DNA of 64,000 nt from positions 14,260,001 to 14,324,000 of the forward strand of contig OZ024753.1 of assembly GCA_964016885.1 (NCBI GenBank), read 5' to 3'. Source of the DNA: Eledone cirrhosa (Eukaryota). Each line of letters begins with the position of its first letter. The first letter of the stretch is position 1. The notes below the pieces were generated by a model. The model was given only the letters and a program-made list of their open reading frames with translations, was not told the DNA's origin and did not search any database. This document shows positions 7,602-50,372 of this stretch, in pieces. Both the position numbers and the translations under genes were made by a program.

Positions 7602-7796
7602 GTTCGTGAGAAATCCAGTCAGTTGTCAGCCTATTTCAGTCTTATAGAGAACACTATCAAGTTTTTGGTAAGCAGTGAAGAAGGGCCTCCATTTGATCCC
7701 AACCAAATTATTCAACTATATTCAATCCTTACAGAGACACTCAAGTGTGTCATTTTATTTCTACAAGAGATAAATAAATCATTGCAGTCTTTCCAG
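7602..7796 (+). CDS. NCDN: NCDN exon 4 (VREKSSQLSAYFSLIE...LQSFQ)
   Basis: attgtag acceptor, cag|gtatgt donor, 195 nt, phase 0-0. Confidence 0.88.
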
Positions 7797-10700
7797 GTAT
7801 GTATTTAATGCGTGTGTATGTATTTATGTATATAACATATGTGTGTGTGTGAATATATGTACATGTGTGTGTATATATGCAGTCTTTCCAGGTATGTATA
7901 TAATGCGTGTGTATGTATTTATGTATATAACGTGTGTGTGTGTGTGTGAATATATGTACATGTGTGTGTATATATGCAGTCTTTCCAGGTATGTATATAA
8001 TGCGTGTGTATGTATTTATGTATATAACGTGTGTGTGTGTGTGTGAATATATGTACGTGTGTGTATATATGCAGTCTTTCCAGGTATGTATATAATGCGT
8101 GTGTATGTATTTATGTATATAACGTGTGTGTGTGAATATATGTACGTGTGTGTATATATGCAGTCTTTCCATGTATGTATATAATGCGTGTGTATGTATT
8201 TATGTATATAACATATATGTGTGTGTGTATATATGCAGTCTTTCCAGGTATGTATATAATTGTGTGTGTATGTATTTATGTATATAACGTGTGCGTGTGT
8301 GTGTGAATATATGTACATGTGTGTATATATGCAGTCTTTCCAGGTATGTATATAATGCATGTGTATGTATTTATGTATATAATGTGTGTGTGTGTGAATA
8401 TATGTACATGTGTGTATATATGCAGTCTTTCCAGGTATATATATAATTGTGTGTGTATGTATTTATGTATATAACGTGTGTGTGTAAATATATGTACATG
8501 TGTGTATATATGCAGTCTTTCCAGGTATGTATATAATGCGTGTGTATGTATTTATGTATGTATTTATGTATATAACGTGTGTGTGAATATATGTATGTGT
8601 GTATATATATATATGCAATCTTTCCAGGTATGTATATAATGCGTGTGTATGTATATATGTATATAACGTGTGTGTATGAATATATGTACGTGTGTGTATA
8701 TATGCAGTCTTTCCAGGTATGTATATAATGCGTGTGTATGTATTTATGTATATAACATGTGTGTGCGAATATATGTATGTGTGTATATATGCAGTCTTTC
8801 CAGGTGTGTATATAATGTGTGTGTATGTATTTATGTATATAACGTGTGTGTGTGAATATATGTACGTGTGTGTATATATGCAGTCTTTCCAGGTATGTAT
8901 ATAATGCATGTGTATGTATTTATGTATATAACGTGTGTGTGTGAATATATGTATGTGTGTATATATGCAGTCTTTCCAGGTATGTATATAATGTGTGTGA
9001 ATGTATTTATGTATATAACGTGTGTGTGTGAATATATGTACGTGTGTGTATATATGCAGTCTTTCCAGGTATGTATATAATGCGTGTGTATGTATTTATG
9101 TATATAATGTGTGTGTGAATATATGTATGTGTGTGTATATATGCAGTCTTTCCAGGTATGTATATAATGCGTGTGTATGTATTTATGTATGTATTTATGT
9201 ATATAACATATGTTTGTGTGTGAATATATCTACATGTGTGTATATATGCAGTCTTTCCAGGTATGTATATAATGCGTGTGTATGTATTTATGTATATAAC
9301 GTGTGTGTGTGAATATATGTACGTGTGTGTATATATACAGTCTTTCCAGGTATGTATATAATGCGTGTGTATGTATTTATGTATGTATTTATGTATATAA
9401 CATATGTTTGTGTGTGAATATATGTACATGTGTGTATACATGCAGTCTTTACAGGTATGTATATGATTGTGTGTGTATGTATTTATGTATATAACATATG
9501 TGTGTGTGTGAATATATGTACATGTGTGTGTATATATGCAGTCTTTCCAGGTATGTATATAATGCATGTGTATGTATTTATGTATATAACGTGTGTGTGT
9601 CAATATATGTACATGTGTGTGTATATATGCAGTCTTTCCAGGTATGTATATGATGCATGTGTATGTATTTATGTATGTATTTATATATATAATGTGTGGT
9701 GTGTGAATATATGTACATGTGTGTATATATATGCAGTCTTTCCAGGTATGTATATAATGCGTGTGTATGTATTTATGTATATAACGTGTGTGTGTGAATA
9801 TATGTATGTGTGTGTATATATGCAGTCTTTCCAGGTATGTATATAATGCGTGTGTATGTATTTATGTATATAACATATGTGTGTGAATATATGTACATGT
9901 GTGTATATATATGCAGTCTTTCCAGGTATGTATATAATGCGTGTGTATGTATTTATGTATATAACGTGTGTGTGTGAATATATGTATGTGTGTATATATG
10001 CAGTCTTTCCAGGTATGTATATAATGCGTGTGTATGTATTTATGTATGTATTTATGTATATAATGTGTGTGTGTGAATATATGTATGTGTGTGTATATAT
10101 GCAGTCTTTCCAAGTATGTATATAATGCGTGTGTATGTATTTATGTATATAACGTGTGTGAATATATGTACGTGTGTGTATATATGCAGTCTTTCCAGGT
10201 ATGTATATAATGCGTGTGTATGTATTTATGTATATAACATGTGTGTGCGAATATATGTATGTGTGTATATATGCAGTCTTTCCAGGTGTGTATATAATGT
10301 GTGTGTATGTATTTATGTATATAACGTGTGTGTGTGAATATATGTACGTGTGTGTATATATGCAGTCTTTCCAGGTATGTATATAATGCATGTGTATGTA
10401 TTTATGTATATAACGTGTGTGTGTGAATATATGTATGTGTATATATGCAGTCTTTCCAGGTATGTATATAATGTGTGTGAATGTATTTATGTATATAACG
10501 TGTGTGTGTGAATATATGTACGTGTGTGTATATATGCAGTCTTTCCAGGTATGTATATAATTGTGTGTGTGTATTTATGTATATAACGTGTGTGTGTGAA
10601 TATATGTACGTGTGTGTATATATGCAGTCTTTCCAGGTATGTATATAATTGTGTGTGTGTATTTATGTATGTATTTATGTATATAACGTATGTTTGTGTG

Positions 10701-11150
10701 TGAATATATGTACATGTGTGTATATATGCAGTCTTTCCAGGTATGTATATAATTGTGTGTGTGTATTTATGTATATAACGTGTGTGTGTGAATATATGTA
10801 CGTGTGTGTATATATGCAGTCTTTCCAGGTATGTATATAATTGTGTGTGTGTATTTATGTATGTATTTATGTATATAACATATGTTTGTGTGTGAATATA
10901 TGTACGTGTGTGTATATATGCAGTCTTTCCAGGTATGTATATAATTGTGTGTGTGTATTTATGTATATAACGTGTGTGTGTGAATATATGTACGTGTGTG
11001 TATATATGCAGTCTTTCCAGGTATGTATATAAATGTGTGTGTGTATTTATGTATATAACATGTGTGTGTGTGAATATATGTACGTGTGTGTATATATGCA
11101 GTCTTTCCAGGTATGTATATAATTGTGTGTGTGTATTTATGTATATGTCT
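7783..11150 (+). repeat. ~85-100-bp minisatellite beginning in NCDN exon 4 (unit contains tgcagtctttccag|gtatgt)
   Basis: About 37 copies read directly; explains the HTYI/VCVY ORFs. Confidence 0.95.
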
Positions 11151-11564
11151 GTTAGTGTGTAGGTGAATGTATGTATTTTTGTACATGTGTGTGTGTGTAT
11201 ATGCCATCTAACCAGGACCAGAATGTAAATAAGAATTTATGTATATAATGTGTGTGTGAGCTGCTACTTCGAATAAATTGGTGTGGGGTAGAGAAGTCCC
11301 CCAAGTCCAGTAAGACAACTTTCTTAGTCCTGGTGGCATGAATAAAAGCACCCGGTCCATGCTGTAAAATGGAGGGGTAGAGAGGTCCTCTGAGTCCAGT
11401 AAGACGACCTCTCTGGTGCTGGTGGCACGAATAAAAGCACCCAGTCCATGCTGTAAAGTGGTGCTGGTGTTAGGAAGGGCATCTAACCAGTATATATACC
11501 ACTGCCAAAAACTATGAGCACAATGAGAATTGCAACAACTGCGTAAACAGCAACAACACTAACC

Positions 11565-12630
11565 ATGCTGTCAGTAAAGTGAGAGTAGGAATGGAGTTTA
11601 ATGAAGAATTCCAGATACAAGTAGGAGTACATCAGGGTTCGGTCCTCAGCCCGCTCTTGTTCATTATAGTCCTCCAAGCCATAACAGAGGAGTTTAAGAC
11701 TGGCTGTCCATGGGAACTTCTCTATGCTGACAATCTGGTTCTTATAGCAGAATCAGTAGAGGAGCTAGAGAATAAATTCTGGCTATGGAAACAGCAGTTG
11801 GAAGCAAGAGCACTGAGAGTGAACCTAGCTAAGACAAAAGTGTTGATGAGTAGAAAAGAGGACAAAACTCTGATTCCATCAGGGAAATGGCCATGTTCGA
11901 TATGAAGAAAAGGAACTGGTATAAATTCTATAAAATGTACGCAATGCAGATCTTGGGTACACGAGATGTAGTGGGATAGCAGGCAAACTAATAGGTAGGG
12001 AGAAATACGTATGGAGTAGATGTACAGGGAAATTAGACAGTAGTAATCGCAGTGATAGACACATTTTTCAAATGCAGGAGGGTTCTATAGAAGTGGTTGA
12101 TAGCTTCTGGTTCCTAGGTGATCAGATTAGCGTAGGAGGGGGGGGGGGGGGTATTCCGAGGCCATAGTATCTGGAATAAGGACAGGTTGGAAGAAGTTTA
12201 AGGAACTGCTTCCTCTGTTGACAAAAAAGGGTTTCCCCCTGCGTATGAAAGGCCTGCGATGGCTGGAGAGAAATGAAGCAAGCATGCTCCGTTGGATGTG
12301 CAATGTCAATGTGCGTGAACGACCAAGCATAGATGAGTTGAGAAAGAAACTGGGTATAAGAGGGATAAGTTGTAGTGTGCGGGAGAGAAGACTGCGATGG
12401 TATGGACATGTGATGCGCATTGAGGATGACTGCTGGGTAAAGAAATCCCAGTAGAACGAAGACGCAGTAGAGGAAGGCCACGAAAAACATGGGTGAGAAC
12501 AGACCTCAGATCACTGAAGCTCACGGTGGAGATGATGAAGGACCGTGACAAGTGGAGAGATGCTGTGCTGAATAGGACCCGTCCCACCCTTGCAAGCAGG
12601 GAAAAGCGGACGTAAAATGATGATGATGAT
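11565..12630 (+). mobile_element. 5'-truncated RTE LINE (RT 3' half to tail)
   Basis: GVHQGSVLSPLLF, LYADNL, GKWPC; (GAT)n tail; nearly identical to part of 18570-20390. Confidence 0.9.
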
Positions 12631-13186
12631 GTATATAACATATGTGGGTGAATGTATGTATATGTATATGTCTGTTAGTGTATCTGTATGTGTGTGAATG
12701 TAAGTATTTTTGTACATGTGTGTGTATATATGCAGTCTTTCCAGGAACAAAATGTAAATATGTATAGAATGTGTGTGGGTGTGTGTGTGTGTGTATTTAT
12801 GTATATAATGTATGTGTGTGAATGTATGCATATGTATCTGTTAGTGTATCTGTGTGTATGTGTGAATGTATGTATTTATGTATATAGCATGTGTGAATGT
12901 ATGTATATGTCTGTTAGTGAGTGTATGTATTTATATAACGTATGTGTGTGTGTGTACATGTGTATGTATTTATATAACATATCTGTGTCTGCATGTGTAT
13001 GTATTTATATATATGTGTGTGTACATGTGTATGTATTTATATAACGTATGTGTGTATGTGAATGTATGTATTTATATATATGTTTGTATTTATATATATG
13101 TATGTATTTATATATATATATGCATATATATATATATATATATGTATGTATTTATATATATGTATGTATATATATATTAATGTATT

Positions 13187-13217
<31 letters not shown>

Positions 13218-13740
13218 GTATGTATTTATATATATATATATGTATGTATATATATATATATGTATGTATTTATATATATATATATGTATGTATATATATA
13301 TATATATACGTATGTATTTATATATATATATGTATGTATTTATATATATGTATGTATATATATATATATATATGTATGTATTTATATATATATATTTATA
13401 TATATGTATGTATGTATTTATATATATGTATGTATTTATATGTGTTTCCTTGAGCAAGACACTTTACTTCACATTGCTCCAGTTTACTCAGCTGTAGAAA
13501 TGAGATGATAAGGACTGGGGTCCATATCATTCCACTGCAATGTGGTCGTGGAGGTGCCACGGCAAAAAAGCACCCAGCACTCACTGTAAATGAGGTTGGT
13601 GTTAGGAAGGGCATCCAGCTGTAGAAATCAAGCCAGAATCAGTTCCCGTCCTACCCTTGCAAGCAGGGAAAAGTGAACGTAAAATGAAATGATGATGAAA
13701 TGATGATATATATATATGTATGTATTTATATATATGTATG

Positions 13741-13781
<41 letters not shown>

Positions 13782-13815
13782 TTATATATATGTATTTATA
13801 TATATGTGTGTGTAA
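12630..13815. repeat. (TA)n/(TATG)n microsatellite field, with one stray tgcagtctttccag unit near 12731
   Basis: Direct reading. Confidence 0.9.
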
Positions 13816-14365
13816 GGCAGTGAATTGGCAGTTAGAACATTAGACAGAACAATTTACAGTATCTGTTCAACCCATGCTAGTGTGGAAGATGGACATTAAA
13901 GGATGATGATGATGATGATTCTCCTCTCTCTGCTCTCCGAGTTCAAATCCCGCCCAGGTTAATTTTGTCTTTCATCCTTACAGGGTCGATGAAAAAATAT
14001 CAGTCCAGTGTTGATACGGACATGTGATGTGCATGATAGGGTTGGACAGGTCTATAGAGACAGTCAGTACTGAAGCAGGGCTACTGGTCTCCCAGGCCAG
14101 GGATCTGCATCTCACAACATACAGTTTCATTCATTCTACCAAGTGTACAGGAGAGGTTGTTATGTCTTTGATCCAACAAACAAGCATGGACGAGTTGAGA
14201 GTGAAACTGTGTTATAAGAGGGATAAACTGTAGTGTGCGGGAGAGAGGACTGCATTGGTATGGCTATGTGATGCGCATGGAAGATGACCACTGGGTGATG
14301 AAGTGCCAAGAAATCTCGGTGGAAGGAAGACACAGTAGAGGAAGACCATGGAAATCATGGGCGGA

Positions 14366-15044
14366 GCTAAGTATCAACATCTGTTGGTCTTACCTAACTG
14401 TCAACATCTGTTGGTCTTAGCTAAGTGTCAACACCTATTGGCCTTAGCTAACTGTCAACATCTGTTGGTGTTAGCTAACTGTCAACATCTGTTGATCTTA
14501 GCTAACTGTCAACATCTATTGGTCTTAGCTAAGTGTCAATATCTGTTGGTCTTAGCTAAGTGTCAACATATGTTGATCTTAGCTAAGTGTCAATATCTGT
14601 TGGTCTTAGCTAAGTGTCAATATCTGTTGGTCTTAGCTAAGTATCAACATCTGTTGGTCTTAGCTAAGTATCAACATCTGTTGGTCTTAGCTAAGTGTCA
14701 ACACCTATTGGGCTTAGCTAACTGTCAACATCTGTTGATCTTAGCTAACTGTCAACATCTGTTGGTCTTAGCTAAGTGTCAACATCTGTTGGTCTTAGCT
14801 AACTGTCAACATATGTTGTTCTTAGCTAAGTGTCAACATCTGTTGTTCTTAGCTAACTGTCAACATCTGTTGATCTTAGCTAACTGTCAATATCTGTTGG
14901 TCTTAGCTAAGTGTCAACATCTGTTGGTCTTAGCTAAGTGTCAACACCTATTGGTCTTAGCTAAGTGTCAACACCTATTGGTCTTAGCTAAGTGTCAACA
15001 TCTGTTGGTCTTAGCTAAGTGTCAACATCTGTTGGTCTTAGCTA
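14366..15044 (+). repeat. 27-bp satellite, ~25 copies (ttagctaa(g/c)tgtcaacatctgttggtc)
   Basis: Direct reading; the 9-aa QHLLVLAKC period in the ORF track. Confidence 0.95.
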
Positions 15045-15086
15045 CTTTTTTTCTAACAATGTATGTAAATATATTTGATATGGCAG

Positions 15087-15202
15087 GCTAGTGATCCTCT
15101 CTTGCAAGCATGTGTCCGACTGGTTGGTGTATGGATGAAAGAAGATAGTGAAGCTCTCAATGATGAGATCAATGATTTAGTGCCAGTCTTGCTGACATTC
15201 AG
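15087..15202 (+). CDS. NCDN: NCDN exon 5 (ASDPLLQACVRLVGVWMKEDSEALNDEINDLVPVLLTF)
   Basis: ggcag acceptor, ag|gtaaaa donor, phase 0-2; matches the neurochondrin motif 'A.VR.LG.WLAEE...L..E...LLP.L'. Confidence 0.92.
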
Positions 15203-15301
15203 GTAAAAAAACCTTTTATCACAGTCATTATACTTTGTCATTATCATAATAATTTAGCAGAAAATATCTAAAAGCTTGTTTGTTAATTCAAATGTTTATA
15301 G

Positions 15302-15447
15302 CAGGTATGGTCAACCTTTTTCGAGCAGTGGGCCGCATAGGGTGTGGCTTATCATATGATGGGCCACTTTACTAAAAAATTCAAGGCAATTTTGGAATTA
15401 GACGTGCCATTCAGAAAGCCAAACGGGCCGCAGTTTGCCCATGACTG
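15302..15447. mobile_element. hAT-type MITE
   Basis: Perfect 8-bp TSD gtttatag (15294-15301, 15448-15455); CAG...CTG termini. Confidence 0.85.
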
Positions 15448-15901
15448 GTTTATAGTATTTATAGTAGCTTATAAATAGGGTTTGCTTATTTCTCAGGCAT
15501 AAAATAGGGATGTGTCGGCTTATATTTGAGTATATACAGTACATCTGTTGAAAGTCTATTCATGTCTCCTCATAACCCTTTTGCTACCAAACTGCCCAAC
15601 ACTGACCCTGGTTCAATGGTACAAAACTGTTTGTTTTAAAGTATTTATATTTATCATTAAACTTTCTACCATAATTTTATGTAAGAAACCTTTGTTATCT
15701 TCTAAACACCAACATAACAATGAAAATCTGCCAAGTATATATGGTAGATAAAATTCTAAATCTCTCCAAATTCTTGATTTTATTTTTTTAAATGATTTGA
15801 AAGGCAGTCTTTCATTTGAAATATAGTAAGAAAAGGGTTAAAAACTAATATTGTAAGAAAGGGCATCTGAAGAAATTCTTATTTTAATTATATTTTTCTA
15901 G

Positions 15902-16106
15902 TAAAAACCTGCTGTGTACAGCTGAAGTTGAGAACCCCGTGGTGAGTTGTTCTGGTGTTCTATCCCCTCTTTTTGAAGGGTTCTGTCAACTGGCCTCCGA
16001 CACTAATGGCAGGGAACAGTTATTACAACATGAAGCTTACATCCCAGTTGCACAGTATTTGTTACACGCTCTTAGCCAGCTTCCACAGAAGGACGGCAAT
16101 ATTCTG
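15902..16106 (+). CDS. NCDN: NCDN exon 6 (KNLLCTAE...LFEGFCQLASDTNGREQLL...DGNIL)
   Basis: tttttctag acceptor, gtaagt donor, phase 2-0; matches 'LLPG.CHL......RE.L'. Confidence 0.9.
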
Positions 16107-16131
16107 GTAAGTTCTCATAGTTTATTAATAA

Positions 16132-16500
16132 CTAGCAGTGGTACCTGGCGTTGCACGGGGTAAGGTATTGTGAAATATATAACCGCCTTAGCTAAGCTTA
16201 GTATTGCCACAACCACGGCTGGCAAAGAAGTAAGGGTCTGGTGGTACGTAAGTAAGCAACACTGTGGCTTAAAACGTGAGGAAGAAGTTCTGTGCACTTA
16301 CCACCAACTGTTTGGGGAATGAGTGTGAGATTTGTCTTGAGCAAGGATGGCAGAATAACCAGAGACAGCAGACAGCCAGACATACAGACAGATATATTAT
16401 AAGGGCGCGTTCTGGACGCAGAGAGAATTGTAGGAAGTGACGTAATGCAGACAGCTAGACATACAGACAGATATTATAAGGGCGCGACGTTATATGTATG
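16132..16500 (-). mobile_element. Non-autonomous Helitron remnant; a related 3' end lies at 53693
   Basis: Minus-strand hairpin acccgtgcaacgccaggt followed by CTAG|T; 5' boundary uncertain. Confidence 0.55.
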
Positions 16501-17477
16501 TATCTATCTAAAAAGAGAAAGACTAAGAATTATAGAGAGAGATCGCTAAATCGCCTAATGTTGATTCATGACAAATAGGTAAAGGTGGACACAAATACAA
16601 AATTAACCCTTTACCATTTACATTACCCTATATATACTATTTTATTTTTGCGGTAAACATTTTATCTCACATAATATTGAATCTATGAGATTTAGATATT
16701 ATTTATTTTGAGAACAATAGCTTAACATCAGTATGAGTGGCCAGTTACAGCCAGTTTGAATAGAAAGAGGTGAGAGAATTCTGGCCGGATATGGCCGGTT
16801 TAAATAAATGCTAAAGGGTTAAATAAAGGTAGCGAGTTTGGTTTTTACATCTACCTCCCATCCTCTGATGACTGAATGCTGAAGCTGGCGCATTACTGCA
16901 CCAGTTCCTGCAATTCTTGCACCTAATTCAGCTTCCTGCCTTCCATCACTCGTGAACACAGATACAGAATGAAAGAGAGAAAATTTGGCTTTCACACCTA
17001 CCTCTGTTGACCACAGAATACTGAAGTTGCTGTACTACTGCATCAACTCCTGCATTTCTTCTACTTGAAATTGTTATAGATTTTATTGGAGGCACATGGC
17101 TTAGTGGTTAGAGCATTGGCCTTGCAATCGAAAGGTTGTGAGTTCAATTCTCAGACTGGGTGATGTGTTGTTTCCTTGAGCAAGACACTTTATTTCACAT
17201 TGTTCCAGTTTACTCAGCTGTAGAAATGAGATGATAGGGACTGGGGTCCCTATCATTCCACTGCAAAGTGGTCGTGGAGGTGCCACGGCGAAGAAGCACC
17301 CAGCCCACACTGTAAAGTGGTCTTGGAGGTGCCACGGCGAAAAAGCACCCAGCACTCACTCTAAATGAGGTTGGTGTTAGGAAGGGCATCCAGCTGTAGA
17401 AATCAAGCCAGAATCAGTTCCCGTCCCACCCTTGCAAGCAGGGAAAAGCAGACATAAAATGATGATGATGATGTTCT

Positions 17478-17690
17478 TGTTGTTATATGTAAATAATCCC
17501 AAGGTTGTTGTTATTATTATTGTGTTGTTATATGTAAATAATCCCAAGGTTGTTGTTATTACTGTTGTGTTGTTATATGTAAATAATCCCACGGTTGTTA
17601 TTACTGTTGTGTTGTTATATGTAAATAATACCAAGGTTGTTATTATTGTGTTGTTATATGTAAATAATACCAAGGTTGTTGTTATTTCCA
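17478..17690 (+). repeat. 39-45-bp tandem repeat x5 running into the NCDN exon 7 acceptor
   Basis: ttgttatatgtaaataat(c/a)cca(a/c)ggttgtt repeated. Confidence 0.9.
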
Positions 17691-17691
17691 G

Positions 17692-17815
17692 TTGTGTATC
17701 GAAAGCCTCTGTGATCTTCTATATCAACTGACTGAGACAGATGTTCAGTTCTTGGACTCAGACTCAATATATGTCTGTTTATTCAACAGACTAGCAGAAG
17801 TTCTACAAAATACTG
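17692..17815 (+). CDS. NCDN: NCDN exon 7 (LCIESLCDLLYQLTETD...VLQNT)
   Basis: tttccag acceptor, g|gtaagt donor, phase 0-1. Confidence 0.88.
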
Positions 17816-18569
17816 GTAAGTTTTTTAACAATTATTTTGTCCTACTTCTTCCAGGTCACTATATATCTATCGACAGTCGATTGACTTTCGTCAAATCGGA
17901 CCGAGGAAACAATGTTTTCATTGGTCTTTCCAATTGCTAATACTATCTATCGGTCACAACTCCAGGTAGAAGGAGCAACGTGAAATAAAGTGTCTTGCTC
18001 AAGGACATAACGCATCGCCCGGTCCAGGAATCAAACTCATAGCCTCAAGATTGCGAATCCAATTCTCAAGCCACTCAGCCATGCACCTTCACATATATAT
18101 ATATGTGAAGGTGTCACATATATATATATATATGTGAAGGTGTCACGACAAAAAGTACCCAGCACACTGTAAATGTGGTTGGCGTTAGGAAGTGCATTCA
18201 GCCATAGAAAGCCAGCCCCAAAACACCCAGCCCACACTGTAAAGTGGACGTGTAAAAGACACGGCAAAAAGCACCTAGCACACACTGTCAAGGAAGGGCA
18301 TCCAGCCGTAGAAAACCAGCCAGAAGCTCTCCTACTTGCTTCTAAATGGGACAAACCCGTCTAACCCATGCTAGCATGGAAGATAGATGTTAACCAACGA
18401 AGATGATATATACACATACATACACACAAACATATATATATGTTCTACTTGTAGAATGCATGAAGGAACAATTAGAAACCTGACTTCTTTCATCAGGTGT
18501 TTCAAGAAAATGTTTGTATTTAGTAGATGATGCTCAACTATGTTTATATAACATCAATGGCAGTGTGTC

Positions 18570-20390
18570 AGTGTAAATCAGGATGTTGTTGGAGATAAGT
18601 GTGTCCAAAATGATGCTGGTGTACTTAGTGTCACGAATAATCAGAAAAAGGAGGCCTGGAAATGTCATTATGAGAGACTGATGAATGTGAAGAATGAATG
18701 GAATGGAAGAGAGAGAAATTACCCCAGTAGACCCAAACTAGGGACCAGCTATTAAGATTGATGAATATAGGGTCCAAGAGGCAATTAAGGAAATGAAAAA
18801 TGGTAAGGCTGCTGGACTGTCGAAGATAGTTGCTGAGATGCTGAAGGCATCAGGGAACATAGGCACTAAACTCGTTGACGCATCATCAATCGGGCTATAT
18901 ATGGTGGTGTCATACGCAAAGACTGGTGCAGCAGTATTCTCATAAATCGCTACAAAGTTAAAGGGGATGCTCTGGAGAGGAGCAATTATAGGGGTATAAA
19001 ACTGATGGATCAGGTTATGAAAGTGGCAGAAAGGATATTAGCACAACTAATTAGAGAAAGGGTCAAACTAGATGAGATGCAGTTTGGTTTTGTGCCTGGG
19101 AAAAGTACAACAGATGCCCTCTTCTTGGTGAGACAATTACAAGAGAGGTTCTTAGAGAAAAATAAGCCAATATACTTAGCTTTTGTTAACTTAGAGAAGG
19201 CCTTTGATAGGGTACCCCAATCTGTCATCTGGTGGTCCCTAAGGAAACTAGGTGTAGAGGAATGGCTTGTGAGGACAGTGCAAGCTATGTACAGAGATGC
19301 TGTCAGTAAAGTGAGAGTAGGAATGGAGTTTAGTGAGGAATTCCAGATACAAGTAGGAGTACATCAGGGTTCGGTCCTCAGCCTGCTCTGGTTCATTATA
19401 GTCCTCCAAGCCATAACAGAGGAGTTTAAGATTAGCTGCCCATGGGAACTTCTCTATGCTGACGATCTGGTTCTTATAGCAGAATCAGTAGAGGGGCTAG
19501 AGAATAAATTCTGGCTATGGAAACAGCAGTTGGAATCAAGAGGCCTGAGAGTGAACATAGCTAAGACAAAAGTGTTGATGAGTAGAAAAGAGGACAAAAC
19601 TCTGATTCCGTCAGGGAAATGGCCATGTTAAATATATAGAAAAGGAACTGGCATAAATTCTATAAAATGTACACAATGCAGATCTTGAGTACACAAGAGA
19701 TGTAGTCGGATAGCAGGCAAACTAACAGGTAGGGAAAATATGCAGTAGATGTACAGGGAAATATGACAGTAGGGTCGCAATGATAGACACATTTTTCAAA
19801 TGCAGGTGGATTCTATAGAAGTGGTTGATAGCTTCCGGTACCTAGGTGATCAGATTAGCATGGGAGAGGGGGTGTTCCTAGAATAAGGACGGGTTGGAAG
19901 AAGTTTAGGGAGCTGCTTCCTCTGTTGACAAAGAAGGGTTTCTCCCTGCGTATGAAAGGCCTGTTATATGATGCCTGTGTGAGATGCGCGATGCTGTATG
20001 GTAGTGAGACATGGACAGCAACTATAGAGGATATGCGACAGGTGGAGAGATATGAGGCAAGCATGCTCTGTTGGATGTGCGTGAATGACCAAGCATAGAT
20101 GAGTTGAGAGAGAAACTGGGTAAAAGAGGGATAAGTTGTAGTCTACAGGAGAGAAGACTTGAGATGGTATGAACATGTAATGCGTATGGAGGATGACCGC
20201 TGGGTAAAGAAGTGCCAAGAAATCCCAGTTGAAGGAAGACATAGTAGAGGAAGACCACTAAAAGCATGGGCGGAGGTGGTGAGAACAGACCTCAAATCGC
20301 TGAAGCTCACAGAGGAGATGACCAAGGACCATGACAAGTGGAGAGATGCAAGCAGGTAAAACCGGATGTAAAATGATGAGGATGATGATG
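18570..20390 (+). mobile_element. RTE LINE, degenerate RT with Cys-rich (PHD-like) insert and 3' tail
   Basis: NYRGIKL, QFGFVPGKST, FVNLEKAFD, HQGSVLS, YADD; stops and frameshifts. Confidence 0.93.
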
Positions 20391-21064
20391 AATGGCCTTT
20401 CATGATATTGTGAGATTTAGTATATTGAATAAATGATGAAATATGGGAGATAACTTCAAAAGTACCAAGCAATGAAACAACCATAACAAACATTTTAAGT
20501 CTAATTTCTTGGCTAAAGCATGACGGCCTTCTCCATTTTGTTTTATCATCTGATTCCCTCTTCACAAATCCCTGGCTTTCATCTCCTTCTTTCATCTTCA
20601 GCCATGTCTATCTTGGTCTTCCTTTACTTTCTTCTACATTCATTTCTATCTCTTCTTTTGTCACCTTGATCCTTCCTAAACACATGACCTAGCCATCTCA
20701 TTACAAAAAAGGACCTCATAATGAGTATATAACATGTACCAAACTCGAGGAAAAAAATTTTTAAGGTTACTTCCTATTGTCTTCAATCTTTTACTTTACT
20801 TCACTGCGGGGTTTTTTTTCTGTCTTATTACCTTGGCATTTTTACCAAATAAGGATTGTTGGGCTTCCAAATAAACAAACGTATTGTATGTTTGTATTTG
20901 CATTTCATATCATCATCATCGTTTAACATCCATTTTCCACGTTACCATGGGTTAAACGGGTTGTCCCATTAGAGGCAAGTCGAGTCAGGTGACCATGTCT
21001 TGTTCATATGTAACTGTTTCTGGCTACGTTTCTATAGCTGGATGCCCTTCCTAACACCAACCAC

Positions 21065-21890
21065 ATTTACAGTGTGGATTGGGTGCTTTTTATTGTGACA
21101 GCTACATGACCACTTTATAGTGTGGACTGGGTGCTTTTTGTTGTGACACCTACAAGACCAATTTACAGTGTGGGCTGGGTGCTTTTTGTTGTGACACCTA
21201 CATGACCAATTTACAGTGTGGGCTGGGTGCTTTTTGTTGTGACACCTACATGACCAATTTACAGTGTGGGCTGGGTGCTTTTTGTTGTGACACCTACACT
21301 TACCCAATTACACCTCTCAAAGGCGATGACACGCGACCGTGACCTCTGGCGTCACGCAGTAATACAGAGTACCCGACCTCCCATGGGTACAAGCTGAAGC
21401 AATAGACAATATGCCCCACACCCTCCCACTGCAAAATGGTCGTGGAGGTGCCACGGCAAAAAAGCACCCAGCCCACACTGTAAAGTGGACGTGTAGGCGC
21501 CACAGAAAAAAGCACCCAGCACTCATTGTAAATGAGGTTGGTGTTAGGAAGGGCATCCAGCCGTAGAAATCAAGCCAGAATCAGTTCCTGTATGAGCAAG
21601 GCATGGTCAGCCGACCAGACACTGCCCACAACAGGACAACTCGTCTAACCCATGCTAGCATGGAAGAACGGATGTAAAACGGTGATGATGATGATGATGA
21701 CCTACATGACCAATTTACAGTGTGGACTGGGTGCTTTTTGTTGTGACACCTACATGACCACTTTAGAGTATGGAATGGGTTTTTTTTATTGTGACACCTA
21801 CATGACCACTTTATAGTGTGGAATGGGTGCTTTTTATTGTGACACCTACATGACCAATTTATAGTGTGGACTGGGTGCTTTTTGTTGTGT
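21065..21890. repeat. 48-bp SINE-derived tandem array interrupted by a SINE insertion
   Basis: cagtgtgggctgggtgctttttgttgtgacacctacatgacc units on both sides of 21300-21700. Confidence 0.8.
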
Positions 21891-21985
21891 AAGGGTGGTA
21901 TGGACAGAAATGGGTGGGTATGTATATATTTATATCTCTCTATCTAACTATCTATATATTTTTTTATCTATGTTTCTTCTTACAG

Positions 21986-22069: not shown

Positions 22070-22209
22070 GTAAGTTGCTCCCCTTCTCATGTGAACACTT
22101 TAAACTGATTACCATCACAGACTTCTCTATTGAACACAACTAATTACCATCACAGTCTTCTTTATTGAACACAACTGATTCCTCTTAGGCCCAGTTTTTC
22201 TTTCAACAT

Positions 22210-24074: not shown

Positions 24075-24134
<60 letters not shown>

Positions 24135-41271: not shown

Positions 41272-41408
41272 CTTATCTGTAGGTTTCAAAAGTTCTTCTA
41301 CATCTTGTTTCTCCTCGTCTGTAACCTCAGTATTATTTAAAGATTCTAAATATCTCAAGCTGCAGAGAACGTCTATACGGAACTCCTCTTCTCGAGATAC
41401 TGGAGTAT
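41272..41408 (-). CDS. LRRC23: LRRC23 exon 7, LRRcap region (DTPVSREEEFRIDVLCSLRYLESLNNTEVTDEEK...TDK)
   Basis: aatacag acceptor, aag|gtattg donor, phase 1-0; LRRcap-like 'P.....YR..V...L..L..LD...VT.EE'. Confidence 0.88.
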
Positions 41409-41599
41409 CTGTATTGATGAAAAATAGGAATAACTAGAAATAGGTTAAAGAATCTAGTATAGTTTACATAAAGTATTGTGAAATATATGTCTACAGTTTT
41501 TATGAAATATGTGATATATATGGCAACAGGTTATGCGAAATATGTGATATATATATATATATATATATAAGATCAAAAGATGGTTAAAAGAGTTCCATG

Positions 41600-41672
41600 T
41601 ATTTTATTATGTGCATTTCAAAAACAAATATCATCATGGGATAATATTTTTTTGTTCTCATCAGATAAAATA
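41600..41672 (-). ncRNA. Type I hammerhead motif
   Basis: tattttat-CTGATGA-gaacaaa...tttgttttt-GAAA tgcac ATA-ataaaata; perfect 8-bp stem I. Confidence 0.62.
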
Positions 41673-43228
41673 GGGAGACATGATATGAAGCTTAAAATAT
41701 ATATATATAGTGAGTTAGAAACTCTGAGTAGTCTCTCACAGCTCTAAGAAAAAATCTTTTCTGAGCTGTGTAATATAATTGAATAAACAAGAGAGATGAA
41801 CACTAATATAAACATACATGTGTTCGAATCGTAAGGACTAGTTTTGCTAGGGTAAAAAAATACTAACTACAGCAATATGGTTTGTCAGACTTAAATTTAA
41901 GTAGTAAATTATTATTAATTTACTACTTAAAATTAAGTCTGACAAACCATATTGCTGTAGTTAGTATTGTTTCACCCTACCAAAACAGTCTCTTGTTTAT
42001 TCAATTATATATATATATATTAGAAAGTGAGGTTTTTTTACAAAATGAAAAAAAAAACAAGGTGTCCTACACGAGTGAAAGTATAAGGAAAAAAGATGAA
42101 ATTGAAAATGCAACTGGAGTCTTTTTTTTTTTAAATATATATTTATTTGGTTCCTCTACCGGTTTAGCAGTTCTTCTGCTTTTCAAAAGTAGATTTGAGA
42201 TGGAGGGTTTGTGGTTTTTCTCACATCTGGTTGGTGTTTGAATGTTACTTCTGTTTTATATGGAAAAAAGTGGCTTGAAATGCTAGGTTTTTAGAGAAGT
42301 AATTTGGTTGGTTGGTGAATAAGTGTAATAAATTTTGCGCCAGTTCGCATTACAAAGTTCTTATATTTGCCTTCAGGTTGTTTTTTCATATATGAGTGAA
42401 ATTTGGTTGGTTGATGCAGAATCAGCTTTGTGTATATATATATATATATACACACATACATATCCCTCTCTTTCTCTCTGTATATATCATCATCATCATC
42501 ATCTTCACCGTTTTACATCCATTCTTTCACGCTAGCATGGGTTAGATGGGTTGTCCTGTTGTGGGCAGTGTCTGGTCGGCTGACCTTGTCTTTGCTCATA
42601 TGGGAACCGATTCTGGCTTGATTTCTACAGCTGGATGCCCTTCCTAACACCAACCTCATTTACAGTGAGTGCTGGGTGCTTTTTTTCCGTGGCGCCTACA
42701 CGTCCACTTTACAGTGGGCTGGGTGCTTTTTTCCCGTGGCACCTACACGTCCACTTTACAGTGTGGGCTGGGTGCTTTTTTCCCGTGGCACCTACACGTC
42801 CACTTTACAGTGTGGGCAAGGTGCTTTTTTCCTGTGGCACCTACACATCCACTTTACAGTGTGGGCAAGGTGCTTTTTTCCTGTGGCACTTACACGACCA
42901 CTTTGCAGTTTGAGGGTGTGGGGGCATATTGTCTATATGCTTCAGCTTGTACCTGTGGGGGGTTGGGTCTTCTGTATTACTGCGTGATGTCAGAGGTAAC
43001 GGTCCTGTGTCATCGCCTTTGAGAGGTGTAATTGGGTAAGGTCGGCTTTTATCACACACTTTACCCACACTGTAAAGTGGACGTGTAGGCGCCACGGAAA
43101 AAAAGCATCCAGAACTCACTGTAAATGAGGTTGGTGTTAGGAAGGGCATCCAGCTGTAGAAATCAAGCCAGAATCAGTTCCCATCCCACCCTTGCAAGCA
43201 GGGAAAAGCGGACGTAAAATGATGATGA

Positions 43229-43266
<38 letters not shown>

Positions 43267-43938
43267 AAATTTGAAACTGAACTTTTCATATACCCACTCT
43301 ACTACCCCAAGTATTGAGTACTCTGGTGAGTAATAGTCTATCACTTCCATTCTGACATATTTCCCCTGTACAACAAGAAGACCAAATTATCACATTATAA
43401 ATAATAATAATGAAATTATTGTGTACAGTGCTCAGGTGCACTACAACTCATCAAAGGTACATGTACAGTACATAGAATAATGTACAAATGTCAGGAAAAT
43501 GATCAGCGTGTGTATGGAGGGGGGATATTAGACAAGATCTCATATATGACATATATATATGTTTGATGATAACTAAACTAGCAGACATAGAATATCTATG
43601 TCCTATACTGGTTGAACTTTGAAATCTTAGGTAGCATGCATTTGTGTTGAGATCTTATTCATATAATATATTTTGTCTCTGCACATTACATAGAGTGCTT
43701 TTCTTTTATTTGTTCCCACAATAAAAAGCACCCAGTCCACATTGTAAATGTGGTTGGCAGGAAAGGCATTCAGCTATAGTAATCAGGCCAGAAACAGTTC
43801 TGTATGAGCAAGACACAGTCATATAAAATTTTTATAAAACTATGACCCTTTAATTTTCTATAATGGGACACACTGAAGCCTGTATCTAATGTGGCTACCC
43901 AGTTGGGTTAACTGTAGCAGCGGCCCTAGGTGGCTTAC

Positions 43939-44015
43939 CATTTAAAAACAAAATTGTAAGACTTGGCAAAGTGGACAGTTTGATCACTTCAGACATTTCC
44001 TCAATGATATTCTCT
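43939..44015 (-). CDS. LRRC23: LRRC23 exon 6 (ENIIEEMSEVIKLSTLPSLTILFLN)
   Basis: tatttcag acceptor, g|gtaagc donor, phase 2-1. Confidence 0.9.
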
Positions 44016-44116
44016 CTGAAATAGAAAAGAAAAGGAAAATAAACTGACTTAATGGTAAATATTTAAAGTGGCAAGGGTTGTGTTGTGATAACATGCACCA
44101 AGTACACTCTGTAAAG

Positions 44117-44545
44117 TGGTGGTGGTAGTGTAGTTGGCGGCAGTGGTAATGGAGGTGGTGTTAGTAGTGGTATTGGAGGTGGTGTTAGTGGGGGTATTGG
44201 AGGTGGTGTTAGTAGTGGTATTGGAGGTGGTGTTAGTGGTGGTGGTATTAGTAATGGTATTGGAGGTGGTGTTAGTAGTGGTATTGGAGGTGGTGTTAGT
44301 GGTGGTGGTATTAGTAGTGGTATTGGAGGTGGTGTTAGTAGTGGTATTGGAGGTGGTGGTATTAGTAGTGGTATTGGAGGTGGTGTTAGTAGTGGTATTG
44401 GTGGTGGTGTTAGTAGTGGTATTGGTGGTGGTGTTAGTAGTGGTATTGGTGGTGGTGTTAGTAGTAGTATTGGTGGTGGTGTTAGTAGTAGTATTGGTGG
44501 TGGTGTTGGAGGTGTTATTAGTAGTGGTGTAGGTTGTAGTTGTGC
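44117..44545. repeat. GGT/AGT/ATT trinucleotide mosaic
   Basis: Direct reading. Confidence 0.9.
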
Positions 44546-44594
44546 TATAAATGATGGAAAAGTAGAAGAAGAAAATGAAAGCCAACGAAATATT

Positions 44595-44727
44595 GTATGG
44601 AAACCCTACCTGAGGTCAATGTATGGAAACCCTAAGTGAGATCAATGTATGGAATCCCTTCCTGAGGTCAATGTATGGAAACCCTACCTGAGATCAATGT
44701 ATGGAAACCCTACCTGAGATCAATGTA
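44595..44727 (-). repeat. 26-bp repeat x5 of the LRRC23 exon 5 end + donor
   Basis: tacattga(t/c)ctcag|gtagggtttcca. Confidence 0.92.
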
Positions 44728-44850
44728 CTTCAGTTGTTTTAACTTGGAATGAAAGCCTTCCAGATCATCAATCATATTGTTATTTAGCTCCAATACTTCT
44801 AAATTGACCAGGTCTGAAATCCACTCAGTGTGGAGAATCTTATTGAAACC
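44714..44850 (-). CDS. LRRC23: LRRC23 exon 5 (GFNKILHTEWISDLVNLEVLELNNNMIDDLEGFHSKLKQLKYIDL)
   Basis: tttttcag acceptor, ag|gtaggg donor, phase 0-2; LxxLxLxxN repeats. Confidence 0.92.
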
Positions 44851-47800
44851 CTGAAAAACAGAGAATAAGGAGGTGCTGACCAGTGACCAATGAAAGACAG
44901 AGAATAAGGAGGTACTGACCAGTGACCAATGATAGACAGAGAATAAGGAGGTACTGACCAGTGACCAATGAAAGGCATGGCATAAGGAGGTGCTGACCAG
45001 TGACCAATGATAGACAGAGAATAAGGAGGTACTGACCAGTGACCAATGAAAGGCATGGCATAAGGAGGTGCTGACCAGTGACCAATGATAGACAGAGAAT
45101 AAGGAGGTGCTGACCAGTGACCAATGATAGACAGAGAATAAGGAGGTACTGACCAGTGACCAATGAAAGGCATGGCATAAGGAGGTGCTGACCAGTGACC
45201 AATGATAGACAGAGAATAAGGAGGTGCTGACCAGTGACCAATGAAAGGCATGGCATAAGGAGGTGCTGACCAGTGACCAATGAAAGGCATGGCATAAGGA
45301 GGTGCTGACCAGTGACCAATGAAAGGCATGGCATAAGGAGGTGCTGACCAGTGACCAATGAAAGACAGAGAATAAGGAGGTGCTGACCAGTGACCAATGA
45401 TAGACAGAGAATAAGGAGGTACTGACCAGTGACCAATGAAAGGCATGGCATAAGGAGGTGCTGACCAGTGACCAATGAAAGGCATGGCATAAGGAGGTGC
45501 TGACCAGTGACCAATGAAAGACAGAGAATAAGGAGATGCTGACCAGTGACCAATGATAGACAGAGAATAAGGAGGTACTGACCAGTGACCAATGATAGAC
45601 AAAGAATAAGGAGGTACTGACCAGTGACCAATGAAAGGCATGGCATAAGGAGGTGCTGACCAGTGACCAATGAAAGGCATGGCATAAGGAGGTGCTGACC
45701 AGTGACCAATGAAAGGCATGGCATAAGGAGGTACTGACCAGTGACCAATGAAAGACAGAGAATAAGGAGGTGCTGACCAGTGACCAATGATAGACAGAGA
45801 ATAAGGAGGTACTGACCAGTGACCAATGATAGACAGAGAATAAGGAGGTACTGACCAGTGACCAATGAAAGGCATGGCATAAGGAGGTGCTGACCAGTGA
45901 CCAATGAAAGGCATGGCATAAGGAGGTGCTGACCAGTGACCAATGAAAGAGAGAATAAGGAGGTACTGACCAGTGACCAATGAAAGGCATGGCATAAGGA
46001 GGTGCTGACCAGTGACCAATGAAAGGCATGGCATAAGGAGGTGCTGACCAGTGACCAATGAAAGGCATGGCATAAGGAGGTGCTGACCAGTGACCAATGA
46101 AAGAGAGAATAAGGAGGTGCTGACCAGTGACCAATGATAGACAGAGAATAAGGAGGTACTGACCAGTGACCAATGATAGACAGAGAATAAGGAGGTACTG
46201 ACCAGTGACCAATGATAGACAGAGAATAAGGAGGTACTGACCAGTGACCAATGATAGACAGAGAATAAGGAGGTACTGACCAGTGACCAATGATAGACAG
46301 AGAATAAGGAGGTACTGACCAGTGACCAATGAAAGGCATGGCATAAGGAGGTGCTGACCAGTGACCAATGAAAGAGAGAATAAGGAGGTGCTGACCAGTG
46401 ACCAATGATAGACAGAGAATAAGGAGGTACTGACCAGTGACCAATGATAGACAGAGAATAAGGAGGTACTGACCAGTGACCAATGATAGACAGAGAATAA
46501 GGAGGTACTGACCAGTGACCAATGATAGACAGAGAATAAGGAGGTACTGACCAGTGACCAATGATAGACAGAGAATAAGGAGGTACTGACCAGTGACCAA
46601 TGAAAGGCATGGCATAAGGAGGTGCTGACCAGTGACCAATGATAGACAGAGAATAAGGAGGTACTGACCAGTGACCAATGAAAGGCATGGCATAAGGAGG
46701 TGCTGACCAGTGACCAATGATAGACAGAGAATAAGGAGGTACTGACCAGTGACCAATGAAAGGCATGGCATAAGGAGGTACTGACCAGTGACCAATGATA
46801 GACAGAGAATAAGGAGGTGCTGACCAGTGACCAATGAAAGGCATGGCATAAGGAGGTGCTGACCAGTGACCAATGAAAGGCATGGCATAAGGAGGTACTG
46901 ACCAGTGACCAATGATAGACAGAGAATAAGGAGGTACTGACCAGTGACCAATGATAGACAGAGAATAAGGAGGTACTGACCAGTGACCAATGAAAGGCAT
47001 GGCATAAGGAGGTGCTGACCAGTGACCAATGAAAGGCATGGCATAAGGAGGTGCTGACCAGTGACCAATGAAAGGCATGGCATAAGGAGGTGCTGACCAG
47101 TGACCAATGAAAGAGAGAATAAGGAGGTGCTGACCAGTGACCAATGATAGACAGAATAAGGAGGTACTGACCAGTGACCAATGAAAGGCATGGCATAAGG
47201 AGGTGCTGACCAGTGACCAATGAAAGGCATGGCATAAGGAGGTGCTGACCAGTGACCAATGAAAGAGAGAATAAGGAGGTGCTGACCAGTGACCAATGAT
47301 AGACAGAATAAGGAGGTACTGACCAGTGACCAATGAAAGGCATGGCATAAGGAGGTGCTGACCAGTGACCAATGAAAGGCATGGCATAAGGAGGTGCTGA
47401 CCAGTGACCAATGATAGACAGAGAATAAGGAGGTACTGACCAGTGACCAATGAAAGGCATGGCATAAGGAGGTGCTGACCAGTGACCAATGATAGACAGA
47501 GAATAAGGAGGTACTGACCAGTGACCAATGAAAGGCATGGCATAAGGAGGTGCTGACCAGTGACCAATGAAAGGCATGGCATAAGGAGGTGCTGACCAGT
47601 GACCAATGATAGACAGAGAATAAGGAGGTACTGACCAGTGACCAATGAAAGGCATGGCATAAGGAGGTGCTGACCAGTGACCAATGATAGACAGAGAATA
47701 AGGAGGTGCTGACCAGTGACCAATGAAAGACAGAGAATAAGGAGGTACTGACCAGTGACCAATGAAAGGCATGGCATAAGGAGGTGCTGACCAGTGACCA

Positions 47801-47986
47801 ATGATAGACAGAGAATAAGGAGGTGCTGACCAGTGACCAATGAAAGACAGAGAATAAGGAGGTACTGACCAGTGACCAATGATAGACAGAGAATAAGGAG
47901 GTACTGACCAGTGACCAATGAAAGGCATGGCATAAGGAGGTACTGACCAGTGACCAATGAAAGGCATGGCATAAGGAGGTACTAAC
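44851..47986 (-). repeat. 39-bp (some 37-bp) satellite, ~80 copies, forming the whole of LRRC23 intron 4
   Basis: 13-aa periodic ORFs; array begins at the donor GT and ends at the acceptor AG. Confidence 0.95.
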
Positions 47987-48111
47987 CAGTGAAAGTGTTG
48001 TCAGACTTGGTATGTTGATTTTTTCAATATACTCAAGAAGATTTGATGAAGCTTTGAGAGTTGTGAGATGAGGAGATCCCTTTAACTGGGACAGGTCCCT
48101 GATTTTATTGC
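47987..48111 (-). CDS. LRRC23: LRRC23 exon 4 (GNKIRDLSQLKGSPHLTTLKASSNLLEYIEKINIPSLTTLSL); not in the ORF track
   Basis: ccattccag acceptor, ctg|gttagt donor, phase 1-0; two LRR units. Confidence 0.9.
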
Positions 48112-49117
48112 CTGGAATGGAAGAAAGTCAGCAAATTGATTTGTGTGTGTGTTGGAGGAGGGGGGGGGAGTATGTGGATGTGTTTGTGTGTATGTGTGTG
48201 GGGAGTGTGTGTATGTGTGTGGGGATATGTGGATGTGTGTGTGTGTGAGTATGTTAGACCTCTCTTGGTTCTGATGTTCAGGGTTCCAGTTGTTTGAACA
48301 ACAGAACAGCATTCTCGTGAAATTAACGTGCAAGTGACTGAGCATTCTGCAGACACATCACTGTTACAGTCACTCTCTCAGGAGTTTTCAGTGTGACACG
48401 CCATGTGACATGGCTGGCCCTTTCAATAATTTACACATATATAACTCATTTTTGCCAAGTTGTGTGGACTGGAGGGACATGAAGTAAAGTATTTTGCTCA
48501 AGGAGACAACAACCTGGAATCAAACTCACGACTTTATAACTGTGAACCAAACACATTAACCACTGAGTCACATGCTTTCACAAATGGCAAATTTACGCAC
48601 ACAGCAAGAGCAACGCCCTGACCACCTACCAACATATTCTTAACCCACCATTGGTGTCTTGAATGGACCCCATGGTAGTTTCGACGACAAGTCTTTCTTC
48701 CAGTTGTTTGATAAATACAACAACCTTCTGAAATTAATGTGGCTGAGTATTCCACAGATACATGTAACTGTAATGCAATATTTTTCAGGGAAGACTGAAT
48801 GTGGCACAGTGGTTGACAAAGCTGGCCCTTTGAATTACATGCATAGTCCATGTAGCAGGCTTTCAAACAGTTTCAGGTCAACCAAATTTCACACACATGT
48901 CTTGGTTTAGCCTAAGCTGCCATACAGTGGAGTCAAACTCGGGACCCAATGTTTGTCAAGTGAACATCTTTACCGTTCAACAATTTTGCACCAACCACTA
49001 ACACCTGCACCTCCATACCTATACAAGAAGGTGAGTAGTGAAGATAAAAAAAAATTTCACAATATTCACCTCCCACATTGTCATGAAATGAAACAAAAAA
49101 TATGAACTCATACTTAC

Positions 49118-49374
49118 CACTGATGTCAATAAACTTAATAATTGGGTGAGTTAATCCCTCAGAAATGTCCACAATCCTGTTAGAACCAAGGGAAATATAC
49201 TGTAAATAGGAATGGGCCTCAAGAGCAATTTTTTCAATGCTGTTTCTGTCTGCTTTCAGGAATAATAAATTTGGCAAGAAGTTGAGAGGACTTAGATCTG
49301 TGAATTGGTTGTGACTAATATCAACAATTCTCAAATGGATATATTTCTCCAGAATGTTGAAACTGTTGAGTTCC
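49118..49374 (-). CDS. LRRC23: LRRC23 exon 3 (ELNSFNILEKYIHLRIVDISHNQFTDLSPLN...KFIDIS), proximal acceptor
   Basis: ttcccag acceptor, g|gtaagt donor, phase 2-1; matches 'YIHLRYVDIS.N.LTDLSPLN.L..LL.LKAD.N'. Confidence 0.93.
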
Positions 49375-50372
49375 CTGGGAAATAAGAGAGGTAGATATAA
49401 ATTGATATATTTCTCCAGAATGTTGAGTTCCCTGGCAAATAAAAGAGGTAGATATAAATTAATATATTTCTCCAGAATGTTGAGTTCCCTGGGAAATAAG
49501 AGAGGTAGATATAAATTGATATATTTCTCCAGAATGTTGAAACTGGTGAGTTCCCTGGGAAATAAAAGAGGTAGATATGAATAGATATATTTCTCCAGAA
49601 TGTTGAGTTCCCTGGGAAATAAGAGAGGTAGATATAAATTGATATATTTCTCCAGAATGTTGAGTTCCCTGGGAAATAAAAGAGGTAGATATGAATAGAT
49701 ATATTTCTCCAGAATTTTGAGTTCCCTGGGAAACAAGAGAGGTAGATATAAATTGATATATTTCTCCAGAATGTTGAAACTGTTGAGTTCCCTGGGAAAT
49801 AAAAGAGGTAGATATGAATAGATATATTTCTCCAGAATTTTGAGTTCCCTGGGAAACAAGAGAGGTAGATATAAATTGATATATTTCTCCAGAATGTTGA
49901 AACTGTTGAGTTCCCTGGGAAATAAAAGAGGTAGATATAAATTGATATATTTCTCCAGAATGTTGAGTTCCCTGGGAAATAAAAGAGGTAGATATGAATA
50001 GATATATTTCTCCAGAATTTTGAGTTCCCTGGGAAACAAGAGAGGTAGATATAAATTGATATATTTCTCCAGAATGTTGAAACTGGTGAGTTCCCTGGGA
50101 AATAAAAGAGGTAGATATGAATTGATATATTTCTCCAGAATGTTGAGTTCCCTGGGAAATAAGAGAGGTAGATATAAATTGATATATTTTTCCAGAATGT
50201 TGAAACTGGTGAGTTCCCTGGGAAATAAAAGAGGTAGATATGAATTGATATATTTCTCCAGAATGTTGAGTTCCCTGGGAAATAAGAGAGGTAGATATAA
50301 ATTGATATATTTTTCCAGAATGTTGAAACTGGTGAGTTCCCTGGGAAATAAAAGAGGTAGATATAAATTGAT
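49375..50372 (-). repeat. 57/66-bp tandem copies of the LRRC23 exon 3 acceptor + exon start
   Basis: ttccctgg recurs 17 times between 49371 and 50337. Confidence 0.95.

Follow-up and report, generated by a model that had tools for sequence, protein, structure and literature searches.

Four tandem arrays in a 64,000-nucleotide (nt) stretch of Eledone cirrhosa DNA (contig OZ024753.1, positions 14,260,001 to 14,324,000, referred to below as the window and numbered from its first letter) contain a real splice site of one of two genes, neurochondrin and an LRRC23-like gene, with a tandem unit that spans the exon-intron boundary in each case, and we find that arrays seeded by unique sequence are concentrated within ~130 nt of exon edges in this window to a greater extent than chance would produce, with no extra peak on the splice site. 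As judged from sequence, the four fit the structural definition of the mirages described in amphioxus and are of a known kind, not a new phenomenon. Our preferred account, which we place a little above an even chance, is that these mirage-type minisatellites likely arose by slippage-type duplication, likely gathered at exon flanks that are old and have been kept, and are likely tolerated as the exon-side copy stays in use. A sequence-only reading of the window had listed eight arrays at or beside junctions and ascribed them, tentatively, to microhomology and slippage that may be biased to exon borders or tolerated there; Tandem Repeats Finder (TRF) recovered all eight in place, and the junctions are exon borders of homology-supported gene models.

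The window is animal DNA, AT-rich (GC of 0.26-0.48 per kb) and with abundant transposons and tandem repeats; by the neurochondrin and LRRC23 homologies the animal is an octopod. The last 12 exons of neurochondrin (121..34237, + strand) were modeled by tblastn and hand splicing at 121-180, 1848-1926, 4751-4920, 7602-7796, 15087-15202, 15902-16106, 17692-17815, 21986-22069, 26180-26350, 28512-28613, 31229-31346 and from 34192 to the stop. The introns are all GT-AG, the spliced frame is open up to the stop, and the translated exons have matches in neurochondrin from Octopus bimaculoides and Argonauta hians as well as in PF05536, with an identity of ~82% to O. bimaculoides neurochondrin P0122 (counted by hand from the alignment). 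When the O. bimaculoides protein was compared with metagenome contigs no related locus was found among 156 pattern matches. The LRRC23-like gene (41272..55354, - strand; tblastn and spliced alignment) has 7 exons at 55354-55265, 52565-52456, 49374-49118, 48111-47987, 44850-44714, 44015-43939 and 41408-41272, with 49% identity to lungfish LRRC23 P0027 over exon 49374-49118. A further final exon is expected in 34240-41271, where a simple acceptor scan found none and where the 3' ends of the two genes converge. Joining of 49118 to 48111, which is not a ladder junction, is seen in one contig of run X4, a run without a library record that is taken as transcript-derived only by virtue of this contig, which skips the 1,006-nt intron at its canonical ends. 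A search of sequencing runs listed no RNA run with matches to the window. Both models together hold 36 splice sites.

In all four arrays, referred to here as ladders, the presumed working site is the end copy next to the exon; fragments of the exon edge have been copied into the adjoining intron with the exon itself intact, and the frames of neurochondrin and LRRC23 are intact when these end copies are used as splice sites. The extra splice-signal positions number 36, 4 and 80 for donors and 16 for acceptors, and most are intact. It had been claimed that splice-site sequence lies inside the arrays at 7783, 44595, 44851-47986 and 49375, and the gene models bear this out.

The neurochondrin donor ladder (7783..11200, + strand; TRF) comprises 37 copies of the exon end in units of ~75-105 nt, each made of 14 exon bases and ~75 TG/TA-rich intron bases. 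The working donor (7796|7797) belongs to the first copy, leaving 36 extra donor positions, and the exact donor context is kept in 32 of the 37 copies; splicing at the first spare donor would lengthen the exon by 95 nt and bring in a stop, in frame, at the fourth codon. Mean identity among units is 0.886, and there are higher-order copies, with units 10/26, 11/27 and 13/29 identical, which fits repeated duplication in vivo. Past the ladder, displaced copies of the exon end are found at 11202-11217 and 12731-12745, and a 75%-identical duplication (11113-11256 / 12629-12777) flanks a long interspersed element (LINE) fragment with a reverse-transcriptase frame.

The remaining three ladders are in the LRRC23-like gene, on the - strand. 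A 26-nt unit, repeated 5.2 times (44594..44727; TRF and sequence), forms a donor ladder whose first copy in the transcript direction provides the working donor at 44714; among its 4 extra copies the GT is intact at 44688 and 44610 and lost at 44662 and 44636. A 39-nt unit makes up the whole of the 3,136-nt intron 44851..47986, with two main unit variants and seven units of 37 nt. The last exon bases recur in each unit together with a donor weaker than the real one, so that there are 80 extra donor-like sites, scoring 6.3-7.8 vs 10.3 for the real donor, and on the acceptor side only the last unit is good (11.6 vs <1 in the others), the matrix in both cases being derived from the window's own sites. 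Use of any of the first 17 would keep the frame without a stop, and 22 of the 80 are in frame overall. The third ladder (49338..50372; TRF and sequence) is built from 57/66-nt units that combine 29 intron bases with 28 or 37 exon bases; the working acceptor at 49374 is the last copy, and the 16 spare acceptors, all in frame and stop-free, score 12.0-13.5 vs 13.3 for the real site (matrix from the window's own 18 acceptors).

All three frames of 44851-47986 are stop-free for >1,000 codons on the gene strand, and open reading frame finders will therefore call false long frames here; retention of the intron would be out of frame. That the 39-mer intron is coding sequence was rejected, the 3,136 nt not being a multiple of three and read-through meeting a stop in the next exon. 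Its origin by classic intron gain, through duplication of an exonic AG/GT, was likewise rejected, as the unit shares few bases with the flanking exons. From the sequence, the ancestor would have been a very short intron (~30 nt if one unit, 69 nt if the first and last units) nearly all of which was amplified, an acceptor surviving in the final unit alone.

It might be thought that the ladders are functional splicing devices, whose in-frame spare sites lengthen LRRC23 by short repeats or which tune splicing in some other way. The 16 of 16 spare LRRC23 acceptors that are in frame, stop-free and score like the real site would suit such a role, as would the run of 17 in-frame, stop-free spare donors that opens the 39-mer intron and the full donor kept in most neurochondrin copies. 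However, one unit length in three is divisible by three by chance alone and short stop-free units are common, so that the in-frame ladders are not significant; in the other two ladders the spare sites lead to stops or frameshifts, two of four spare 26-mer donors have been destroyed and only about a quarter of the 39-mer sites, those counted above, are in frame, and inserts would be expected to break the LRR repeats. We consider a function of this sort very unlikely.

An origin of the arrays as artefacts of assembly or library preparation is also unlikely, and in our estimate extremely so. Words of the 44851-47986 array are present at ~44-64x, and those of the 49338-50372 array at ~10-14x, the depth of flanking unique DNA in contigs of runs X1 and X3, these values being summed contig depths and not copy numbers. 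The RAD-seq run X5, from another study, did not reach the arrays. What keeps the explanation alive is that X1 and X3 are one sample, possibly the source of the assembly, with the library type not on record. Besides the raised depth, the arrays show the signs of concerted turnover, namely shared unit variants and higher-order repeats, together with the alternation of 57 and 66 nt, none of which read errors would produce.

As to how the units were formed, overlaps of 4, 3 and 3 nt were noted by eye at the edges of 44594-44727, 44851-47986 and 49338-50372, the three junction arrays in which edges are readable; per array, an overlap of >=4 nt has a chance of 2% and one of >=3 nt a chance of 6%. 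The microhomology and slippage that had been proposed fit these overlaps. Unit breakpoints are scattered, ~6-37 nt into exons and up to ~120 nt into introns, and do not fall at the junction. A reverse-transcribed lariat or circular RNA as the source of the arrays was rejected by inference, since in each unit exon and intron bases are contiguous over a single junction.

Further arrays lie close to a junction without containing it. The sequence-only reading had placed four within ~60 nt, and their distances of 42, 5, 56 and 20 nt agree with this, although one is a microsatellite of a class that is not enriched. The first is a 27-nt satellite (14365..15044, no strand assigned) that ends 42 nt ahead of the acceptor at 15087; it has an inverted sister array at 22206-23240, 7 kb away and ~91% identical with four shared unit variants, which suggests local copy-out of an array. 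Both 27-mer arrays are beside neurochondrin exons (42 and 136 nt). The statement that each array has its own unit thus holds for the four junction arrays, which are unrelated, and fails for this pair. Next come a 45-nt array of sequence just upstream of an acceptor (17478..17686, + strand), ending 5 nt before the acceptor of exon 17692 and extended over it at a relaxed TRF setting; the degenerate ATGT microsatellite (25236..26123, no strand assigned), ending 56 nt ahead of the acceptor at 26180; and a 77-80-nt array (28634..28889, + strand) that starts 20 nt past the donor at 28613. Three more were absent from the earlier list: a 35-nt duplication (22103..22180, + strand) 33 nt past the donor at 22069, a 136-nt array (4247..4628, + strand) 122 nt ahead of the acceptor at 4751, and a 33-nt array (41477..41554, - strand) 68 nt ahead of the LRRC23 acceptor at 41408.

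TRF yields 47 merged loci in the window, 38 of them within gene spans, which cover 15,589 of 45,797 intron bases (34%) and more than 50% of 5 of the 17 introns. This coverage is of local origin, the exceptions being transposon-borne 48-mers and the 27-mer pair. Half of the splice sites (18/36) have a TRF locus of period >=18 within 150 nt, and wholly exonic arrays number 0 at four TRF settings and 1 at the most relaxed. Arrays also grow outside genes and inside transposons, and the earlier remark to the latter effect is confirmed by 11 arrays with dispersed-repeat seeds. An array of 84 nt x12 in unique sequence (56585-57581) is found beyond the modeled genes, 1.2 kb upstream of the start codon of LRRC23.

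In order to quantify the relation to exon borders each array was collapsed to one seed unit and placed at random in gene spans, with wholly exonic positions excluded, in 20,000 draws; the test did not include the other 9 of the 47 loci, which fall outside gene spans. Arrays with unique seeds were placed only in non-repeat DNA, as defined by a repeat mask that derives from self-comparison of the window and misses further repeats visible as high-depth bins. Assignment of the 7783 array to the unique-seeded class was a manual choice, made despite TG/TA content that matches other places, and low-complexity loci were taken from a hand list in the base test and by rule in a robustness test over ten settings (five TRF settings x two repeat masks). 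All of these results refer to a single window that was picked for showing the pattern, with distance thresholds set after seeing it.

Taking all 38 loci, 4 contain a splice site (1.4 expected, P 0.048) and 15 are within 150 nt of one (7.0 expected, P 0.002); for the 22 complex minisatellites the corresponding values are 4 (1.2 expected, P 0.025) and 12 (4.35 expected, P 0.0005). The signal resides in the 11 unique-seed arrays, with 4 containing a site (1.0 expected, P 0.014; 0.011-0.034 over ten settings), 7 within 60 nt (1.8 expected, P 0.0007) and 9 within 150 nt (2.7 expected, P 5e-5, and P <=0.004 in all ten settings). Neither the 11 arrays seeded by dispersed repeats (transposons) nor the 16 low-complexity loci contain a site, and 3 of each are within 150 nt (2.1 expected, P 0.36, and 2.6 expected, P 0.49, respectively). 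Given nearness (<=150 nt), 4 of 9 arrays contain a site vs 36% expected (P 0.43; 0.33-0.53 and null in all ten settings), and with no excess of site-containing arrays among the near ones the signal is that of exon flanks and not of splice sites. Hence the bias to exon borders that had been suspected is measurable in the window across TRF settings and masks, while seeding at junctions as a separate effect does not emerge.

A skeptical view is that there is no real bias and that a window with chance junction arrays has been singled out from many. There is one window with 11 informative arrays and post hoc thresholds, and at the most relaxed TRF setting the 150-nt excess shrinks to 13/27 vs 6.4 expected; the sequence-only reading omitted five unique-seed arrays, of which 3 lie within 150 nt, a weak result when taken alone. 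On the other hand P values for the 150-nt zone range from 1e-4 to 4e-3 across settings, and we regard chance as a fairly improbable explanation.

The account that we prefer, of slippage, persistence and tolerance, would run as follows. The starting point would be a genome that stutters generally, as is seen in arrays that also grow inside transposons. A unit could then be seeded when a short stretch is duplicated at 3-4 nt of microhomology, to be expanded and homogenized by slippage or unequal exchange. Unique-seed arrays are found in the window within the ~130 nt zone of exon edges, and this placement may reflect intron ends that are long-lived, with deletions there purged, while transposon insertions take the place of the middles of introns; the share of dispersed repeats in intron DNA rises from 10% in the 25 nt next to a splice site to 18% at 25-60 nt and ~40% farther away. 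Seeds would accumulate at exon flanks because these persist, giving seeds a longer time to appear and making them harder to delete. Finally, when a duplication runs across a donor it is the first copy that stays attached to the intact exon, and across an acceptor the last, so that normal splicing probably survives, whereas wholly exonic arrays would be removed. The tolerance at borders proposed earlier is in keeping with this geometry and with the literature, and the spare sites are likely ignored, by analogy with human F7, in which the most upstream donor is chosen.

Several observations weigh against this account. Divergence in near-exon arrays does not significantly exceed that in arrays seeded by transposons (median match 89% vs 91%, P 0.16), and the notion of an old flank is one that we infer from the introns of one genome. 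The enrichment persists after repeat masking (9/10 vs 3.2 expected), so that avoidance by transposons alone is no explanation. Each of the three longest unique-seed arrays in gene spans has a splice site within it, and the length of the junction arrays hints that junction units may expand further. Use of a spare donor is possible, as ABCA7 illustrates (PMC5954066), and no ladder junction was seen spliced, the X4 sequence that was compared not reaching the ladder junctions.

Some of these points would speak instead for duplication or expansion that is mechanistically targeted to exon borders, for example through breaks, R-loops, polymerase pausing or nucleosome edges tied to co-transcriptional splicing. 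Survival of the enrichment under masking, the fourfold excess of site-containing unique-seed arrays, the half of all splice sites with a nearby locus and the great length of the junction arrays all agree with targeting, and the origin of mirages is called unclear in PMC3087553. Against it, site-containing arrays are not in excess once nearness is allowed for, unit breakpoints are scattered and not at the junction, and arrays form also in transposons and, like the 84-nt array at 56585-57581, outside genes. We consider targeting unlikely. A broad bias that is no sharper on the site favors persistence and tolerance over targeting.

Among other features of the window, a dispersed family resembling short interspersed elements (SINEs) is found at 17259, 21060, 21427, 21700, 33220, 40921, 42659 and 51080, with an internal 48/49-nt unit in 2-16 copies depending on the insertion, and represents a transposon-borne variable number tandem repeat (VNTR). 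LINE fragments with reverse-transcriptase matches (PF00078) occur at 18560-20400, 11474-12640 and 61715-62567, and LINE 3' ends recur across the window, one of them holding an internal 80-nt x4 array at 29195-29517. In a neurochondrin intron 2893-4083 (- strand) is a stop-free frame of 397 codons with no Pfam match, probably part of a transposon.

Arrays of this type have precedents. The term mirage was coined for tandem repeats at exon-intron borders of amphioxus Adh3, and they are noted also in globin, troponin C and PGBD5 genes, as length-unstable, reportedly without disturbing splicing (PMC3087553, PMC3902484); the globin examples are BflGb6 and BflGb9. Like them, the arrays described here have units of tens of bases that span the boundary on the donor or acceptor side, spare AG/GT copies, several arrays per locus and signs of concerted turnover. 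They differ in coming from a mollusc, in having 17-80 copies vs 3-6 in BflGb6, and in one array that fills a whole intron; moreover, the amphioxus work demonstrated length instability and normal splicing, and the window contributes a measured bias to exon flanks. In chicken dot chromosomes 'exon stuttering' affects 190 of 5,572 introns amid general intron stuttering (Hron et al. 2026, PMC12954441), and there, as in the window, introns are filled with unrelated local arrays that do not cross exons and some of which copy an exon edge with its donor or acceptor. In the chicken, however, the setting is GC-rich and arrays vary among individuals, while ours is AT-rich, with many transposons, and one 27-mer occurs in two introns. 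The arrays work like stuttering but are not classed with the avian case, the GC-rich setting being absent.

In humans a 37-bp VNTR in intron 7 of F7 uses its first, most upstream donor, the downstream copies being silent (PMC1557585), and for the 25-bp VNTR in intron 18 of ABCA7 some use of one spare donor is on record (PMC5954066). The donor ladders resemble both in that the first unit is the real donor and later units are identical pseudo-donors; F7 and ABCA7 are, though, isolated loci, arrays of this kind being rare in the human genome. Also minisatellites at exon borders are the internal tandem repeats described at exon-intron boundaries in duplicated human genes, which can alter splicing (PMC2812944); those can create new introns, whereas no intron gain is shown here. 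As for cause, PMC3087553 calls the mechanism unclear and Hron et al. (PMC12954441) only speculate. Our literature search, which reached few subscription papers, found no cephalopod case and no genome-wide test of enrichment at exon borders. What the window adds is the measured shape of the bias, an exon-flanking zone that is not sharper on the splice site.

A wider proposal, bold and in our view rather doubtful, is that in octopods a duplication process coupled to transcription or splicing preferentially starts and enlarges minisatellites less than ~150 nt from exon borders, drives transposon-independent growth of introns (here perhaps from 30-70 nt to 3.1 kb) and leaves thousands of donor and acceptor ladders, some of them in frame. 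Natural ladders of identical donors or acceptors would, in that event, serve to test splice-site choice and models of intron gain. The 17 near-identical acceptors ahead of one LRRC23 exon constitute a natural test of 3' splice-site choice, the mirror image of the F7 donors, and were duplication indeed targeted to exon borders, splicing would be linked to a mutational process that would help to explain the large introns of cephalopods.

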